64,000 nucleotides of DNA from a virus (Duplodnaviria > Caudoviricetes): the IMG/VR virus record IMGVR_UViG_3300010270_000394, positions 1 to 64,000 of that record; one strand, 5' to 3'. The notes under the pieces were generated by a model. It ran no database searches. It was not told where the DNA came from and saw only the letters and a program-made list of their open reading frames with translations. This document shows, piece after piece, positions 11,543 to 30,388 of this stretch (position 1 is the stretch's first letter; each line of letters starts with the position of its first letter). Made by a program: the position numbers and the translations under genes.

Positions 11543-12486
11543 TTATGTCGGTACACCGATATAATCTAAAACTTCTCTCATGCCAAGTCCACCGGAGTTC
11601 CAAGGTTTCATGCAGTATTCATAGAGTTGCGGATGTGTTTCTTTCAAACGCTGAAATCGGTTTGGTTCTTTTTCAAGATGACAGCCAAAACCACAAAATA
11701 CGCATCCAGTTCTATCACAATCTGTTGTTTTCCATTTATCTTTTTCATCTTTTATGATTTCTCCGTAAACAGAAGCATATGGTATTTTATACTTTTGTAA
11801 GTATTCCAATACATCTTGCTCCGTCCAAAAAGACATTGGTTTGGATGATGGATTCTTTGCATCGAACGAATTGCATCCGTAATTCAGCCATTGCGATCTG
11901 CGTTGCTTGCTTTCCGATGCCATTGTTCCGATAATCGGTTTAAGTCCGCTTTCCCGTTCAAACTTATGCAAGGGTTTTTTCTTCATGATATTACAACATC
12001 TTGAGGATACTTTGAATGGTGCTTCTGTCAAATACGACCATTGCTGACAATTAAATTCAGAAGGCTTTCCGTTATCCTTTTTGATATTTCCGTGCAACAG
12101 ATTCCAACGCAATGTTCCGGGATTTGCGTATTCAATCACATTGGCAATCTGCTTACTGACAAGCGGGTATCCATATGTTTCAATGACTTTACGGAAACTC
12201 ATTTCCGGTTTAAGAACTATTACATTTTCTCTTGATTTTGCAAACTGTCTGACTTCCGGATATTCCAAACCGGTATCTACAAATACAGCAGGAGCATTTG
12301 GATAAACTTTTCGTACTAAATCAAGAAGTACAGTTGAGTCTTTTCCTCCTGAAAATGACACAAAGACTTGCCCCCCCACCTTTGCCCGAACTCAATAATT
12401 CGAGTGAGAGAAACGCGAATTTTCTTATCCAAAGTCCATGCTTGCATCATTTTCAAATCCTCTGCGGTAAACTTCGCGCTGCTCAT
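11543..12486 (-). CDS. PAPS-reductase-family protein 1, frameshifted at G7 tract (G8 restores)
   Basis: AGGAGG-ATG at 12486 reads MSSAKF...QRWGG; one extra G joins it to QVFVSFSGGKDS...CC...RTGCVFC. Confidence 0.85.
12371..12377 (-). repeat. Poly-G tract TG7CAA (out of frame)
   Basis: C7 on plus strand at the frameshift point. Confidence 0.9.
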
Positions 12487-12878
12487 GTTTCCTCCTTTTG
12501 ATTATAATGTTTTATTCTGATCAGCAGTCGATATTTACGCGCGGTTTCGATCATATGCTTTGTTCCGGAACTCTTTCCGTCCCAAAAGGCAACCAGCGCG
12601 TCAGCGTTTTGCGCCATTTCCAGATTGCGGACAAATCCGGCAGATTTTTTGTAGGTATTCCAATCTGCCGGATAATAACGAATTTCATATCCGCGTTCCT
12701 CGGCGTATCTTGCACCGAGAGTATCCGCACCTCGCGCCGCTCCACAGATAACGACAACTTTGTAAGTGATCCTTGACAAAAAATAATCTATAGACCGCTT
12801 CAAATAATCGTAGTCATTAAAGTCTCGTCCACCGGCAATAATGACGCGAAATTCTCTATTCTTAGTTTCTGTGTTCAT
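12483..12878 (-). CDS. SLOG/YspA-like (DUF2493) protein
   Basis: IAGGRDF, GAARGAD, AGFVRN, FWDGKSSGT. Confidence 0.85.
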   Translation of the reverse strand: MNTETKNREFRVIIAGGRDFNDYDYLKRSIDYFLSRITYKVVVICGAARGADTLGARYAEERGYEIRYYPADWNTYKKSAGFVRNLEMAQNADALVAFWDGKSSGTKHMIETARKYRLLIRIKHYNQKEET

Positions 12879-24681: not shown

Positions 24682-25565
24682 TTATAAACCCATGAAAATG
24701 TGTTTTATAACCTCTTTTGTCCATCCGTTGCCGCAGAGAGAACGCCGTACATTGTCACTAAAACCTTCTGTAAAGCCATCCGGCAGTGTTTGAAGTCTTT
24801 CGTACTCAACAGGCGTAAGTTTACGAATTCTTCCAGAATCCAAAACTTTTTTCTCCTGATAACCGCCATTTACACAAGTCAGCGTCGCGCATTTGAACGC
24901 CGGATTATACACTCGCTTGAGCATATCATGTGTGTTGACTTGCAACGTGGCGATTACTTTCTTATCGTCTCCATGAAAGATAAATGGTTTGTTGTAGTAA
25001 TCCTTTTCAGGAGCATTATCCACCATAATATCTTTCAAAACAGTGCTGTTGTACTTTGGCAGCGGAGCTATCGGTATATTTGTCCAATACAGACGTTCAC
25101 GATCTTGAGCTGAGAAGAGGTTACTGTTGATTAGAACAGGATTGCCCCCCCAAGTTCAGCGGTGATCACGTTTTCATCCTGTTTGCTCTTTGGAACGACG
25201 TTCTCCAACATATACCAGCGCGGTTTGATTTCATGAACGGCTCTCGCGTACTCAAAGAAAATCGCAGATTTTCCATTTAGTCCGGAGCAAATCGCGTCAT
25301 TTTCCTGCCGCACGACGGAAAGACTTTGGCAGCACGTTCCAGCAATGACAAGATCAAAACCGCGAAATTGCGAAAAATCCGCTCCAAATACATCGCCGTG
25401 ATGAACCACTTCCGGAAAATGCTTTTTACTCAACGCAATTGCCGGTTCATAGATTTCGTATGTATGGTATTCGTCAACGGGGATTCTAAGTTCCTTGAGA
25501 GCAAACAGACCGGTTTCCAGACCGCCGCAAATTGAGAGAACTTTCAATCCCATATCGTCACTCAA
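24682..25565 (-). CDS. C5-cytosine DNA methyltransferase 1, frameshifted at G7 tract
   Basis: Motif I (SICGG), IV (GTCCQ), VI (ENV); after +1 G (or -2 G): NPVLINSNLFSAQDRERLYW, RKLTPVEYERLQ, GNGW. Confidence 0.88.
25145..25151 (-). repeat. Poly-G tract TG7CAA (out of frame)
   Basis: C7 on plus strand at the frameshift point. Confidence 0.9.
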
Positions 25566-25988: not shown

Positions 25989-27277
25989 TCAAAATAATTT
26001 ACAGCCTTGATCTTTGAATTCTTGAATCTGTTTATCCCATTTTTCCTGATCCCATCCAAATTCACGCATCAAGCACTTTTTACATTTGAATTTTTCCGTG
26101 TTGCGCCCAAACATTTTCATGTTCATTGCCAGTGTATTTTTGTCTTTGATTTTCAGCGGTTGACGGCGATAATTCAGACATCCATTTGCACAATACTTGT
26201 TAAAATACTTATGTGCAACTTCTAAATCCAAACCATTGTACTGCGCGTATTCCGCAATGACTTCCTCTGTCGGTTCTGCGCGGTAAACGCCGCCTGTCCA
26301 TGCTTTATTGACGTATTCTGCAATCGTGCAGTTCATAATCAGCCATTTATTGTTGCGGATGAAATCATTTCGCACGATCTCCCGCCAGCGGTTAAATAAA
26401 TATGGATACCAATAGCGATCCAGAACCCAAGTGTATTTTGTGTAGTTCGGACAGGCGATCCCGCAGCCTACGCGATCATATCCGTAACGGTATTTATCGT
26501 TGATCTCGATTCCTTCCGAGAGAATATAAAGCCAAACGTCGAGTTCCGTCCATTTGCGAATCGGCAAAACAGCAATCCAATCACGATTCTCCCACTTGTC
26601 GTTTTTCCAAATGTCTTGATAGTTGGAACGCCGCGCGGATTCCTCGTTTCGCATTCCAAACAGGAACAGCAGCTTTTCATCAGCAGAAAAATACTCAATT
26701 GTCGGTGATTCCTTGTAGTAAGTACAACAGAACCGATTCAAGCGGCTTGGAAGCGTTTGATACCGCTGGATATAGTTATAAAATCCACCGTATTTTGGAT
26801 TTGGAAGGATGTGTTTGAAATCATTTCTTGCCGCCATCCGATTACTTTCTTTAACATCAAGCGTTGTTACATTGAAATATGTTTCAAACGTCAGTCCTGC
26901 CTTTTTTGCAAGATTGAGAACAACCATGCTGTCCTTTCCGGTGGAGTTTGTGTTGATAATTCTACGATCTGTCTGTAATCCGATCTGACGCAATAAAGAA
27001 ATGCTTTCTTGCTCAATTTCACTTAAATGCTCACGGTTTCTCCGAATTGTATCCTTCCATGTTTCAAAATCGGTTTCGTCTTTGTTCTGTTTGTGTTTTT
27101 TAATCGTAACATTCAAATCATCATCAACGAAGATTCGGAATAATGAAACGATTTGCCCCCCAGCTTAAAGGCTTTTACCAAATTATTGTCCATCCAGAAT
27201 GTTTCTTCACGAAACCATGATGTATCACAACCGTTGTCATTCAGGAATCGGATGTACTCAGGAAAAATGGGCTGCAT
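25989..27277 (-). CDS. PAPS-reductase-family protein 2, frameshifted at G6 tract (G7 restores)
   Basis: GGAGG-ATG at 27277 (MQPIFPEY...AFKLGG); downstream STGKDS, RFCC, GMRNEESARR, RVGCGIACP. Confidence 0.82.
27156..27161 (-). repeat. Poly-G tract TG6CAA (out of frame)
   Basis: C6 on plus strand at the frameshift point. Confidence 0.85.
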
Positions 27278-27285
27278 AATGCCTC

Positions 27286-27570
27286 CTAATACAAATCTTC
27301 GCTGTAAAGTTCATGTTCTCCGTGTTCTGCCTTATACGCACAATTTGTAACTGAAAGTTGACCACAATTCATTGCGTGATCAAACGCATCCTCTCTATTC
27401 AAAAATTCTCCGGTATGCGTTATAAATCCTTCCGTGACGTGTTTCTTGTAATTTGTGTTATTACACAAATTGAAAAGAATCTCATAACCGCTTCCATGAC
27501 GAAAACACGGCACAATCGTTTCTTTGAAATCTTTACATTGTTCAATCTTCAATGCTGCACAAATGATCAT
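27286..27570 (-). CDS. Phage hypothetical protein
   Basis: IICAA...RH...GFIT..GEFLNREDA...LYSEDLY pattern. Confidence 0.75.
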   Translation of the reverse strand: MIICAALKIEQCKDFKETIVPCFRHGSGYEILFNLCNNTNYKKHVTEGFITHTGEFLNREDAFDHAMNCGQLSVTNCAYKAEHGEHELYSEDLY

Positions 27571-27769
27571 TGGTCATCATCCTGTCGTGATTTTTCAATA
27601 ATACAAACACCAGTTTGCTGTGCTGTGATCGTAGGACAAATCATGCCTTCCTCTTGCACTCGTCCTCGTCTTGTTTGACTGTTTGGATACGACAAATCAA
27701 CTGCCCCCCCACTTTACAGCGGATGTAACCTTTCTTTGTCGCTTGTTTGACATACACATATTCATCCAT
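27567..27769 (-). CDS. Stand-alone C5-MTase target-recognition-like peptide, frameshifted at G7
   Basis: KQATKKGYIRCKVGG plus 1 G gives AVDLSYPNSQTRRGRVQ...CPTITAQ; restored stop overlaps next ATG. Confidence 0.72.
27704..27710 (-). repeat. Poly-G tract TG7CAG (out of frame)
   Basis: C7 on plus strand. Confidence 0.85.
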
Positions 27770-28082
27770 GCGCTTCACCATCTGTCTGAAGTTTTTCCAG
27801 CGCTTTTTCAAATGCTCCGATTCCGGAAAAGAACGATCCAACAACCATGTTCTCAAACAAGTACGGCATTGCGTCGTATAGGTTTTTCATGATTTGTTCC
27901 AGAACATCAACAACAATGCTGTTTCCTGCTTGTTTGTAGAGTTGCGAATCGCTTCTGTCTCTTCCGTTAAAAAGCTGCCGGTTCATCGCCTGTTTTGCAT
28001 TTTCAAAATCTTTATCGTCAAATCCCATAAAACGCCAGCATTCCTTTGGAGTCAATCTGCGGACTCGGATATTACTCACCAT
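27762..28082 (-). CDS. C5-MTase 2 small subunit carrying motifs IX, X and I
   Basis: RRLTPKECWRFMGF, YKQAGNSIVV, then SFFSGIGAFE at the C-terminus; AAAGGTGG RBS. Confidence 0.85.
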   Translation of the reverse strand: MVSNIRVRRLTPKECWRFMGFDDKDFENAKQAMNRQLFNGRDRSDSQLYKQAGNSIVVDVLEQIMKNLYDAMPYLFENMVVGSFFSGIGAFEKALEKLQTDGEAHG

Positions 28083-28992
28083 GCGTTCCACCTTTCGTTT
28101 CGTATTCAATTACGCCTGTCATCTGCTGGTTTCCAAAACCTTTGTAATCTCTTGCAAGTAAAGCAAGCGACGTATTGGTATAACCGTCAAATTTACTTCC
28201 CTTGTTGCTCAATTTAGCGCCCACCTTCGACCGACACCAAATCCCATGTGTGTCTGTCTGTCGATCCCCGTCCACCGGATCGGATCGTATTTCCGACTTT
28301 ACGGCTTGCGCTGGGGGGGCAAATCCTTCAGATACAAGTTGCGTTATTTTTTCATCAGAAATGTAATATTTTTCGTCAACTTCATCTTCCAATAAATCAG
28401 GAAGTTCATGTATCAAAGGAATCGGTTCTGGAAATTTGAATTTTTTGTTGTCTAATTCTTTTTTGATGATGACGCAATAAATACGCTCACGATTTTGCGG
28501 AATACCATAGTCTTTCGCATTGAGAACTTTCCAATAAACGTTGTATCCATAATCTTCCAATTCTTCCACGAACAGATCAAACATTGGTTTGAACCTTACA
28601 GATACGATGTTCTTGACGTTCTCATAAATTGCAAATCTCGGTTGCTTTTCTCTTAGGAAGCGTAACCATTCAACCAAGAGCGATGAACGAGTTTTCTCAA
28701 GGTTGCCCCCCCCGCATTTAGGGCATTTGTCTCTTTGCGAGTAATGCACTTCCAGCGGATTATAGGTATGACCACACCGTTTGCACGTCCACATCGCGCC
28801 CTTCTGTTTTCCGGCAACGGAAAAATCCTGACAAGGGCTGCCGCCGAACATGGTGTTGAAATCAGGGACTTCCTTTTCATTCACTTTGGTAATATCTCCG
28901 ATATTCAGTGAAGGATCGACGTGATGCACGGCAGCATAGCTTACCGCAGCACTTTCATCAAACTCGCAAAACAAAGCAGTATTGAAATCCAT
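28072..28992 (-). CDS. C5-MTase 2 large subunit (motifs II-VIII, zinc-ribbon insertion, variable region)
   Basis: FCEFD, GDI, GGSPCQDFS, ENV, PQNRER; no motif I at the N-terminus. Confidence 0.9.
   Translation of the reverse strand: MDFNTALFCEFDESAAVSYAAVHHVDPSLNIGDITKVNEKEVPDFNTMFGGSPCQDFSVAGKQKGAMWTCKRCGHTYNPLEVHYSQRDKCPKCGGGNLEKTRSSLLVEWLRFLREKQPRFAIYENVKNIVSVRFKPMFDLFVEELEDYGYNVYWKVLNAKDYGIPQNRERIYCVIIKKELDNKKFKFPEPIPLIHELPDLLEDEVDEKYYISDEKITQLVSEGFAPPAQAVKSEIRSDPVDGDRQTDTHGIWCRSKVGAKLSNKGSKFDGYTNTSLALLARDYKGFGNQQMTGVIEYETKGGTHGE
28313..28319 (+). repeat. TG7CAA tract in opposite orientation (C7 in coding strand) at start of the variable region
   Basis: ctgggggggcaaa on plus strand. Confidence 0.85.
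28706..28713 (-). repeat. Poly-G tract G8CAA (in frame)
   Basis: Encodes CGGGN. Confidence 0.85.
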
Positions 28993-29153: not shown

Positions 29154-29882
29154 TTACTTATGTGGAAAAATGTATAGTTGTTCCATAATATCGAGACGAG
29201 AAGCGTTGTCGAGCGTCCGTTTAACGGGCTGCGACCAAATGGATTTCCAGCTCTCCGGCGCTGTCTGTTCCGATACCAACACAATATTATTCTTAGATTG
29301 TTCTTCAGCCCATTTCCAAAACTCACGGTGATTGAATTGATCCTGATACCCTGTCGTATTTTGATACGGAATATCACAATAGATTACGCTTCCGCTTATA
29401 TTTGGATCGAGCTGCCGGTAATCTGCCTCGCCGAAATGAATGTCATGCAAGGCTGGTATTTGCGCAAGTAGATTTCGTTTTGCCTCGTCATAATAGTTGC
29501 GTTTCGTTCCGATCTTTGTTGTAATTGTTCCGGCTCTGCCGCCGAAAAACTTTCCATTGTACGAGGCAAGGAATCCAACAGCACCTATGTACCAATCCGG
29601 AAATCTGCCGTTTTGCTCCTGATATGATTTCCGAACGGCTGCGTATTCTTCTTTGCTGATTTCTTCAGGCAACGTATTGACTTGATCTATGTGATTAAAC
29701 AATTCGATCAGATAATGATTGATGTCGTATCCAAATTTTTGCTCACATGAAATTTTATCAATTACGTTTGCCCCCCCAACAAACGGCTCAATGTAACGCT
29801 TGGCTTGCGTTTCGTCTATGTAAGACTGGATGATCGGTACGATGTGCTTTGCAATACGGGACTTTGAACCGACGTACTTAAT
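29154..29882 (-). CDS. Dam-family (D12 class) adenine methyltransferase, probable ATT start, in-frame G7 tract
   Basis: KYVGSK, EPFVGGAN, YCDIPY, VSE; GAGGTG RBS before ATT. Confidence 0.88.
   Translation of the reverse strand: MKYVGSKSRIAKHIVPIIQSYIDETQAKRYIEPFVGGANVIDKISCEQKFGYDINHYLIELFNHIDQVNTLPEEISKEEYAAVRKSYQEQNGRFPDWYIGAVGFLASYNGKFFGGRAGTITTKIGTKRNYYDEAKRNLLAQIPALHDIHFGEADYRQLDPNISGSVIYCDIPYQNTTGYQDQFNHREFWKWAEEQSKNNIVLVSEQTAPESWKSIWSQPVKRTLDNASRLDIMEQLYIFPHK
29771..29777 (-). repeat. Poly-G tract TG7CAA (in frame)
   Basis: Encodes VGGA of the SAM-binding motif. Confidence 0.88.
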
Positions 29883-29888
29883 ATAGCA

Positions 29889-30388
29889 TCACCTCAATTT
29901 GATCCAGAATCCCAAGTCAGAGAGGGATTTGATTTCGTTGTCATAGTTTTGTTCCGTGAAAACGACGACTTCACTTGGAAATGGAGCTGCGTCTTTGTCG
30001 CCAAATTTCAGCCGTCCTTTCACGAAACAGATGTATTTTGCGTTTGGAAAAATGAATCTGTGTTGTGCTTTGGTATCCGTCCGTGCCGGAATCAACATGA
30101 CGGTTGTGATGTGATTTTTCCGACTTTCCTCACAGCACTTTTCAATCCAATCTTCCTGTCCGGAATGCTCTTTTGTTCTTTTGCCATAAGGAGGATTACA
30201 AAAAACTACTTGCCCCCCCAAGTTTTTGACAAACCATCATCCGATTCGGTATAATACTGTTCGCATTTATGGTTTGTCTCGTCAGCGCACGGATCAAGCG
30301 TGAATCGGAACGCTCCGTCAAGACGATTGAAAAACGCTCTCGGAGTCGCCCAATTATTATTGCCCGTGCTGAGTAAAACAGCGTCCAT
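29889..30388 (-). CDS. Phage N6-adenine methyltransferase, frameshifted at G7 tract
   Basis: WATP, FTLDPCA, DGLSKTWGG plus 1 G gives QVVFCNPPYG, LIPARTDT, GRLKF, APFPS. Confidence 0.9.
30213..30219 (-). repeat. Poly-G tract TG7CAA (out of frame)
   Basis: C7 on plus strand at the frameshift point. Confidence 0.9.

Follow-up and report, generated by a model that had tools for sequence, protein, structure and literature searches.

The virus record IMGVR_UViG_3300010270_000394 (Duplodnaviria; Caudoviricetes) is a single genome of 100,981 bp with 44.8% G+C, and its first 64,000 nucleotides, here called the window, hold a cluster of DNA-modification genes on the minus strand at 24.6-30.4 kb. This cluster contains the genes of a C5 (cytosine-5) methyltransferase that, judging from the gene layout and its relatives, is probably a functional, multispecific and circularly permuted enzyme made of several polypeptides, carried by a temperate phage of about 100 kb from gut Oscillospiraceae, with target-recognition domains (TRDs) selected by the lengths of G or C runs. 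The length of a run probably decides which DNA sequence the phage methylates. As assembled, the catalytic core appears to be switched on, with the second domain (TRD2) selected and the third (TRD3) switched off, although these states may be off by one base.

All catalytic motifs are intact in the open reading frames (ORFs) of the window, where they are divided between two separately translated ORFs in the manner of the split enzyme M.AquI. The large subunit ORF (28075-28992, stop codon at 28072-28074; minus strand, like every part of the enzyme described here) encodes 306 amino acids (aa) that comprise motifs II and IV, a zinc ribbon, motifs VI and VIII, a bypass linker and TRD2. Its N-terminus is MDFNTALFCEFD, motif II (28936-28977) begins five residues in, and there is no FxGxG, in agreement with the original prediction, made from the DNA of the window, that this ORF begins at motif II and lacks motif I. 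Motif IV (GGSPCQDFS) lies at 28810-28845, the ENV of motif VI (YENVKN) at 28609-28635, and the QNRER of motif VIII (QNRERIY) at 28477-28506. The small subunit ORF (27765-28082, stop at 27762-27764) encodes 106 aa and carries, as had also been predicted, motif IX (28020-28067), motif X (27900-27941), and then motif I (FFSGIGAFE, 27798-27845). Its ATG overlaps the stop codon of the large ORF and follows six bases after the ribosome-binding site AAGGTGG. The C5 motif set I, IV, VI, VIII, IX, and X, including RRLTPKECWRFMGF and QAGNSIVV, is present across the two ORFs, and a profile comparison, proposed along with the prediction, matched both subunits to PF00145 (E=8.6e-48 for the large and E=1.2e-11 for the small).

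Homologs of the large ORF were sought among 5.8 billion proteins, which gave at least 8,000 candidates; the best 120, which were listed, are 52-91% identical. Among the matches listed, P0086, P0089, and P0111 (434-490 aa) are uninterrupted chains without an N-terminal FxGxG, and their order is II, IV, zinc ribbon, VI, VIII, TRD1, TRD2, (TRD3), IX, X, I, with the TRD3 module in frame between TRD2 and motif IX in P0089 and P0111. About 50 relatives with 63-79% identity all begin at motif II and end the large ORF at the same place, so that this ORF is conserved both at its N-terminus, MDF(N/K)TALFCEFD, and at its C-terminal end point; in the closest relatives the ORF ends a few residues past GNQQMTGV(I/M)E with a tail that differs in each. 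The start and end point shared by the closest relatives show that the split is ancient and has been kept. When the small ORF was compared with all of 1.84 billion cluster representatives, 1,204 proteins matched at E<=1e-10; by eye, roughly four-fifths of the best 150 match across the junction from motif X to motif I, and lengths extend from about 100 aa, as in stand-alone small subunits, to more than 800 aa. The single-chain order and the shared end of the large ORF in these relatives support what had been proposed for the window, a split and circularly permuted C5 methyltransferase, and they indicate that permutation and split are family traits and not damage.

The single-chain homolog P0089, and not the proteins of the window themselves, was modelled with AlphaFold on an alignment of 29 sequences (A1). 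The model has a predicted template modelling score (pTM) of 0.65, and the predicted local distance difference test (pLDDT) values of its core are mostly 70-95. The C-terminal motif I forms a strand (456-460) and a helix (465-481), with block-mean pLDDT of 74-92 over residues 451-480 and of 54 in the last block, which includes residue 481. The best match in the PDB is M.HhaI (E=1.4e-16, TM 0.61 normalised to the target), that is, an HhaI-like fold, and the model thus suggests that the permutation is real and structurally sound.

Several natural enzymes, including M.BssHII, M.Alw26I, M2.Eco31I, M.Esp3I, and M2.BsaI, share the placement of motif X before motif I. In the M.BssHII-like enzymes (type H/J) motifs IX-X precede I-VIII and the new N-terminus lies in the variable region, whereas the enzyme of the window has the order II-VIII, TRD, IX, X, I, with the break between motifs I and II and only motif I moved to the C-terminus. 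A survey of REBASE in 2018 counted 27 permuted C5 enzymes from nature (PMC5944983); since every one of them is permuted inside the variable region, the break between I and II is a topology not recorded in that survey. C5 enzymes engineered to begin between motifs II and III were highly active, and pairs of fragments could complement each other (PMC5944983). Natural division into two chains has been described for M.AquI, whose alpha and beta subunits are split near the variable region (PMC5944983), and for M.EcoHK31I, in which the alpha gene also encodes the beta chain, in a different reading frame (PMC2836561). In both enzymes activity arises from two polypeptides, as is proposed here, but their composition is fixed, they have one specificity, and they have no homopolymer runs, alternative TRDs, or permutation.

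The specificity of the enzyme would be chosen at a run of seven C residues on the coding strand (G7 on the plus strand, 28313-28319), a three-state selector whose homologous run in relatives is C7, C8, C9, or C10. With C7, as at present, the window reads through to TRD2 (28105-28215; LLARDYKGFGNQ, KLSNKG...LLARDYKGFGNQQMTGVIE), which is thereby joined to the catalytic core; C8 would read TRD1 and then stop, and C6 or C9 would stop early. The hidden frame of TRD1 (PPSASRKVGNTIRSGGRGSTDRHTWDLVSVEGGR and a stop, 28214-28318) overlaps the bypass linker of the large ORF, and one extra C in the run leads into PPSASRKVGNTIRSGGRGSTDRHTWDLV... followed by the stop. Both outcomes had been foreseen in the original prediction, C7 for the second module and C8 for a hidden overlapping TRD that then stops, and they are borne out by the sequence and by natural variants. 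In related loci, which are those of IMG/VR phages and Oscillospiraceae prophages, C9 gives TRD2 (20 loci), C7 or C10 gives TRD1 and a stop (6), and C8 gives an immediate stop (25). Database proteins fall at the three corresponding lengths of about 295 aa (TRD2), 257-264 aa (TRD1), and 229 aa (early stop). The closest relative of the window among the matches listed, P0002 (91% identical), reads ...GFAPPPISRKVGNTIRSGGRGSTDRHTWDLVSV and is in the TRD1 state, and the TRD1 frame is likewise read in P0037, P0042, P0047-49, and P0053.

The hidden frame is conserved and open after the C run in 56 of 56 loci, and it is always one base off the frame of TRD2, which is present in 54 loci. Its consensus is I-S-x-T-V/I-R-x-G/S-G-R-G-S-T-D-R-H-x-W-D-L-L/V, with the stop inside the first codons of TRD2, while the linker between the C7 run and TRD2 is poorly conserved. 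When the homologs were compared in all three frames over the variable region (29 unique sequences), the ratio of nonsynonymous to synonymous polymorphism (pN/pS) was 0.31 for the TRD1 frame, 0.97 for the one continuing into TRD2, and 1.50 for the remaining one. The low value for the hidden frame against that for the read-through frame argues that purifying selection acts on the hidden peptide and that the read-through frame is a tolerated linker; TRD2 itself has a pN/pS of 0.165. Homologs of the hidden peptide, on which the prediction depended, do exist in the variable regions of methyltransferases. Two further details of the prediction stood in part. The AAGGTGG...TTG start proposed for TRD2 is present in the window, but it is not conserved, and separate translation of TRD2 as a conserved feature was rejected, as several relatives have no start codon near the stop of the hidden frame. 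A GACA repeat noted near 28250-28262 is also present, as (GACA)3 at 28262-28251, but it reflects the codons used for the conserved residues T-D-R-H; as the copy number is 0-2 in relatives with this peptide, a second slippage site at the repeat was rejected.

The third module had been described as a separate small gene with its own G7 tract, and this description agrees with its own start, its selective constraint, and its run lengths in relatives. TRD3 (about 68 aa; ATKKGY...GG) has an ATG at 27769 that overlaps the TGA of the small ORF. As read with G7 the gene is in the OFF state (27641-27769; MDEYVYVKQATKKGYIRCKVGG and then an out-of-frame tail), and the G7 run (27704-27710) separates MDEYVYVKQATKKGYIRCKVGG from AVDLSYPNSQTRRGRV...CPTITA (27713-27570). 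With G8 the frame would be restored and both halves joined, the C-terminal half (AVDLSYPNSQTRRGRVQEEGMICPTITAQQTGVCIIEK... and a stop) occupying 27567-27713. In relatives the run is G8 and in frame in 10 loci, G8 but shifted in 1 more, and shifted as G9 (11 loci) or G7 (4); two lineages that have lost the run stay in frame. The pN/pS of the C-terminal half is 0.16 in 22 unique sequences, equal to that of TRD2, so each of the three modules is under selection. Of the 19 distinct sequences examined, 18 give TRD3 a separate start, an ATG, GTG, or TTG placed 6-11 (mostly 9-10) codons before ATK(K/Q)G; this start overlaps the preceding stop in the window and in L001, and several relatives have a sequence upstream that resembles a ribosome-binding site. 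In the subfamily of the window, TRD3 always follows motif I as a short ORF.

Unlike the window, 57 of 58 relatives have a motif I ORF that runs at least 50 aa beyond motif I. In the distinct sequences listed, this extension consists of a linker of about 30 aa and then a conserved, canonical-looking TRD (GYINDYNGDANRVYD...ARALKAEAGGGGAKTGWY) in which the GGGG loop is a G run, and further TRDs may follow it. Their presence in 57 of 58 relatives suggests that TRDs outside the position between motifs VIII and IX are normal in this family. The three TRD-like modules of the window each have a T[LIV] core and are not on one polypeptide or in one frame; with TRD1, TRD2, and TRD3 only, the window is a minimal version, with the smallest set seen. 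Relatives have as many as four or five extra TRD-like modules, placed ahead of motif IX as well as behind motif I; examples are CIDANYYKG, CPCVNSAAGMGGGQ, ARTLAAEAGGGGAKTGWY, VPTLAARDYKDP, and CPTLRAQIHGNPP (at about 6,900-8,200 in L001, and in L003). Most of the extra modules in L001 and L003, the two loci examined in detail, carry or adjoin a G or C run of their own. A recombination-cassette (shufflon) array of TRDs was considered and rejected, as no direct or inverted repeat in 24.6-30.5 kb is longer than 30 nucleotides (nt), most of them measure 14-24 nt, and the flanks of the runs themselves make up the strongest ones.

Another run would control the catalytic half. Motifs IV and VI are separated by an inserted zinc ribbon (28702-28791; weak Pfam matches to Zn_ribbon_8 and HypA) with four cysteines, which are invariant in alignment A1. 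A scan for runs found G8 on the coding strand within this ribbon (CGGGN, 28706-28713), in frame in this assembly, and this run is a probable on/off switch for the catalytic subunit. The equivalent switch in relatives is located elsewhere, about 32 bases after motif IV (-181 relative to ENVKN), as G7, G8, or G9. The zinc ribbon adjoins the catalytic loop and is conserved throughout the family. In P0013, a homolog of the large subunit, motif IV is interrupted by an intein (Hint domains PF13403 and PF14890) that separates the catalytic Cys from the Gln (GGSPC|...|CQDFS).

Runs of G or C are concentrated in these genes. The 101-kb genome has 65, 9, 3, 6, and 1 runs of lengths 4 to 8, respectively, and 8 of the 10 runs of at least 6 are in methyltransferase, TRD, or PAPS-reductase genes. 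The pooled sequence of 50 relatives (609 kb) has 122, 4, 22, 171, 111, and 15 runs of lengths 5 to 10, a bimodal distribution with a peak at 8-9. Because neither base composition nor sequencing error can create this second peak, the runs appear to be selected. In five genomes of relatives, 41 of 58 runs of at least 7 fall in a modification cluster of 8-10 kb. Contigs at least 98.5% identical once runs were collapsed were taken as near-identical and formed 12 clusters; run lengths differ among members in 10 of these 12, independently at each run (for example, G7/8/9, C9/10, G8/9, G7/8/9, and G8/9 in L003, L017, L024, L025, L030, and L031). A simple-sequence run in a coding region thus sets the reading frame and is polymorphic in length among near-identical genomes, which are the features of a contingency locus, and these comparisons indicate that the G/C runs are selected, hypermutable sites.

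The following mechanism is proposed. The catalytic core would be divided between two translationally coupled subunits, one with motifs II-VIII and the other with IX-X-I, which could reconstitute an HhaI-like enzyme as do the parts of split M.AquI and M.EcoHK31I (PMC5944983, PMC2836561). The small subunit begins exactly at motif IX, the normal joining place of the C-terminus of a TRD, and any TRD-bearing piece could complete the small domain, whether a large subunit that ends in TRD1 or TRD2 or, possibly, free TRD3 acting without a covalent link. The C run after motif VIII would join the core to TRD2, to TRD1 in the frame offset by +1 (where the chain ends), or to nothing; the G run in the catalytic half would toggle the whole enzyme, and the G run inside the stand-alone TRD3 gene would toggle that module. 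If each TRD recognizes a distinct motif, slippage during replication would produce subpopulations of phage and prophage with different 5-methylcytosine (m5C) specificities, and slippage in transcription or translation may add to the variation at the DNA level. Methylation shields DNA from type II restriction but attracts methylation-dependent nucleases. The benefit may therefore be bet-hedging, with protection from host restriction enzymes set against exposure to methylation-dependent restriction. A broader version of this proposal is tentative and somewhat doubtful: one catalytic core would serve a pool of interchangeable TRDs, placed after motif VIII, after motif I, or on a free TRD3 of about 68 aa that docks in trans, and independent slippage at the runs would generate combinatorial specificities inside one phage lineage, a programmable epigenetic bet-hedging against restriction and methylation-dependent defence.

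The closest matches among database phages are phi3T and SPbeta, with 32-34% identity over 81% of the large ORF. M.SPRI, M.Phi3TI, and SPbeta MtbP from Bacillus phages are likewise orphan C5 enzymes with several short tandem TRDs in the variable region. These three are single chains with the canonical order I-X, and all of their TRDs are in one frame and are jointly active. The enzyme of the window, by contrast, is permuted and split, and its TRDs are in different frames and genes gated by G/C runs. Several TRDs between motifs VIII and IX of one polypeptide, as in the SPR/phi3T type, are found in P0089 and P0111 but not in the window, where TRD3 follows motif I. A dependence of specificity on run length has been reported for the type I system NgoAV, in which the length of a poly-G run in hsdS changes specificity (bioRxiv 10.64898/2026.01.10.698759). 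In NgoAV hsdS and in the mod/hsd phasevarions controlled by simple sequence repeats (SSRs), as proposed here, the length of a homopolymer in a specificity gene alters the recognized sequence and does not only switch it on or off; those systems, however, are bacterial type I and III N6-adenine enzymes and involve truncation of HsdS, while in this case the enzyme is a phage C5 methyltransferase with TRDs in different frames and several runs per gene. In phages, hypermutable poly-G runs are reported for receptor-binding genes of Campylobacter Fletchervirus (Sorensen 2021 as cited in PMC12823448), and a preprint on contingency loci of T2/T4 phages also mentions that Bordetella phage BPP-1 has a methylase gene with a poly-G run (bioRxiv 10.1101/2025.10.21.683753). 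The slippage-prone runs of Fletchervirus and T2/T4 likewise give heritable, reversible diversity, but they switch receptor-binding or other genes on or off, whereas the runs described here are concentrated in DNA-modification genes and would select modules.

Three other explanations of these genes can be weighed against run-selected specificity. If the runs were only ON/OFF switches or points of decay, the enzyme would have a single specificity, that of TRD2, and TRD1 and TRD3 would be remnants of a single-chain multispecific ancestor. Single-chain relatives do keep TRD1, TRD2, and TRD3 in one frame, so the offset layout could be derived and broken; the chain in the TRD1 state ends shortly after the module, and about half of the loci have TRD3 in the OFF state. 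Drift would be expected of remnants, but TRD1 has a pN/pS in its own frame about a third of that in the read-through frame, TRD3 is as constrained as TRD2 at a synonymous divergence of 0.57-0.72, and the +1 offset, the open hidden frame, and the start codon of TRD3 are retained across lineages, which makes this explanation unlikely. About equally improbable is that the alternative frames are reached mainly during expression, by RNA polymerase slippage or ribosomal frameshifting, so that one genotype yields several isoforms. Slippage is known to occur at runs of 7-10 G or C, the Pro CCC and Gly GGG codons of poly-C and poly-G permit re-pairing of tRNA, the fixed +1 offset of TRD1 and TRD2 in every locus resembles a programmed arrangement, and for Mycoplasma mod genes a combination of slippage at the DNA, RNA, and ribosome levels has been reported in a 2026 preprint (10.64898/2026.04.01.715767). 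A tuned recoding site would not be expected to vary in length, however, and here run length is not conserved and all three phases occur in near-identical genomes, a signature of mutational phase variation; slippage at the DNA level and in expression are not mutually exclusive.

The explanation given least weight, which is very improbable, is that the breaks are homopolymer errors of sequencing or assembly in an ordinary multispecific methyltransferase, or that the locus is a decayed pseudogene. It has in its favor that 5 of the 8 runs in the window are exactly one base short of frame and would be repaired by one extra base, the pattern expected of homopolymer under-calling. The junctions of the large with the small ORF and of the small ORF with TRD3, however, are stop/start overlaps and not runs, and the offset between TRD1 and TRD2 would need two compensating shifts, only one of which is at a run, so the design is independent of under-calling. 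In relatives, too, the large ORF stops at this point and TRD3 has a separate start, and more than 50 independent assemblies, isolate genomes among them, repeat the design. The excess of long G/C runs over those of lengths 5-6 cannot come from errors, and A/T runs of 6-7 elsewhere leave genes unbroken, with ORFs of 657-1064 aa.

Several observations weigh against run-selected specificity itself. Roughly one in two of the natural consensus states is OFF or dead, which fits phase variation but also fits a relaxed need for the enzyme. Runs in the window are mostly of length 7, compared with 8-9 in relatives, and if the assembly platform compresses homopolymers, then the ON and OFF states given above could be off by one. 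Exact patterns of the C-run flanks had no match in IMG/VR and JGI metagenomes, which leaves no near-identical genome for a comparison of run length. The TRD1, TRD2, and TRD3 peptides have no meaningful sequence match among PDB chains, so their specificities are not predictable, and the TRD region of the P0089 model (residues 232-394) has pLDDT of 25-42 and is unreliable. No experimental precedent for a TRD of about 68 aa acting without a covalent link was found in the literature.

Relatives of the C5 enzyme are found in about 50 large IMG/VR phage contigs and as prophage copies in Dysosmobacter segnis, Hominicoprocola fusiformis, and other genomes of Oscillospiraceae and Clostridia, while a megablast search with the 6-kb cluster against 50,697 public phage records gave no match. 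The cluster of the window also holds a second C5 methyltransferase (24685-25565, minus strand), a PAPS-reductase-family gene (25989-27277, minus strand), a D12-class methyltransferase, and a PF05869 Dam N6-adenine methyltransferase. The second C5 gene and the PF05869 Dam gene (29892-30388, minus strand) are each split at a G run and would be joined by one extra G, and the same holds for two PAPS-reductase-family genes (25989-27277 and 11543-12501, both minus strand); the repair at these split genes would be G7 to G8, but G6 to G7 at 27156. The eight runs of the genome are at 12371, 25145, 27156, 27704, 28313, 28706, 29771, and 30213. The flank T-G(n)-CA is common to all eight, including a run on the strand opposite to its gene, with T before the run in seven; flanks are more varied in relatives, with T or C after the run. 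An identical 15-mer, TTGCCCCCCCAAGTT, is present in two unrelated methyltransferase genes (25142-25156 and 30210-30224). The frame of the D12-class N6-adenine methyltransferase (29157-29891, minus strand) has no ATG, GTG, or TTG before 29702 and follows the stop codon of the PF05869 Dam gene (TGA, 29889-29891) directly and in the same frame; the glycines of EPFVGGANV in this methyltransferase come from a G7 run (29771-29777). In P0024 and P0026 an upstream N6-adenine methyltransferase ORF continues without a stop into the C5 large subunit, giving fusions of 433-482 aa.

Many elements of this system are already known singly, including phase-variable methyltransferases, run-dependent specificity, multispecific phage C5 enzymes, split or permuted C5 enzymes, and poly-G runs in phage genes. 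A literature search found no description of this family, of a permutation with the break between I and II, of run-gated TRDs in alternative frames, of a free-standing TRD gene, or of their combination. Gene callers now report these genes as fragments of about 229, 260, and 295 aa. The family would add a natural permutation topology with a break between motifs I and II to those of C5 enzymes, would be natural evidence that TRDs work when attached outside the position between motifs VIII and IX, and could be a source of ready-made parts for methyltransferase tools that are split or programmable. The orphan methyltransferases of phages are commonly regarded as fixed means of countering restriction, but in this whole lineage of large gut prophages, whose culturable hosts include Dysosmobacter and Hominicoprocola, methylation appears to follow a stochastic and modular pattern. 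If the TRD states do correspond to different motifs, this would be the first case found of specificity switching by run length in a C5 methyltransferase and in a phage; it would explain strain-level variation of methylomes in gut metagenomes, and it would bear on methylation-based binning and host assignment.

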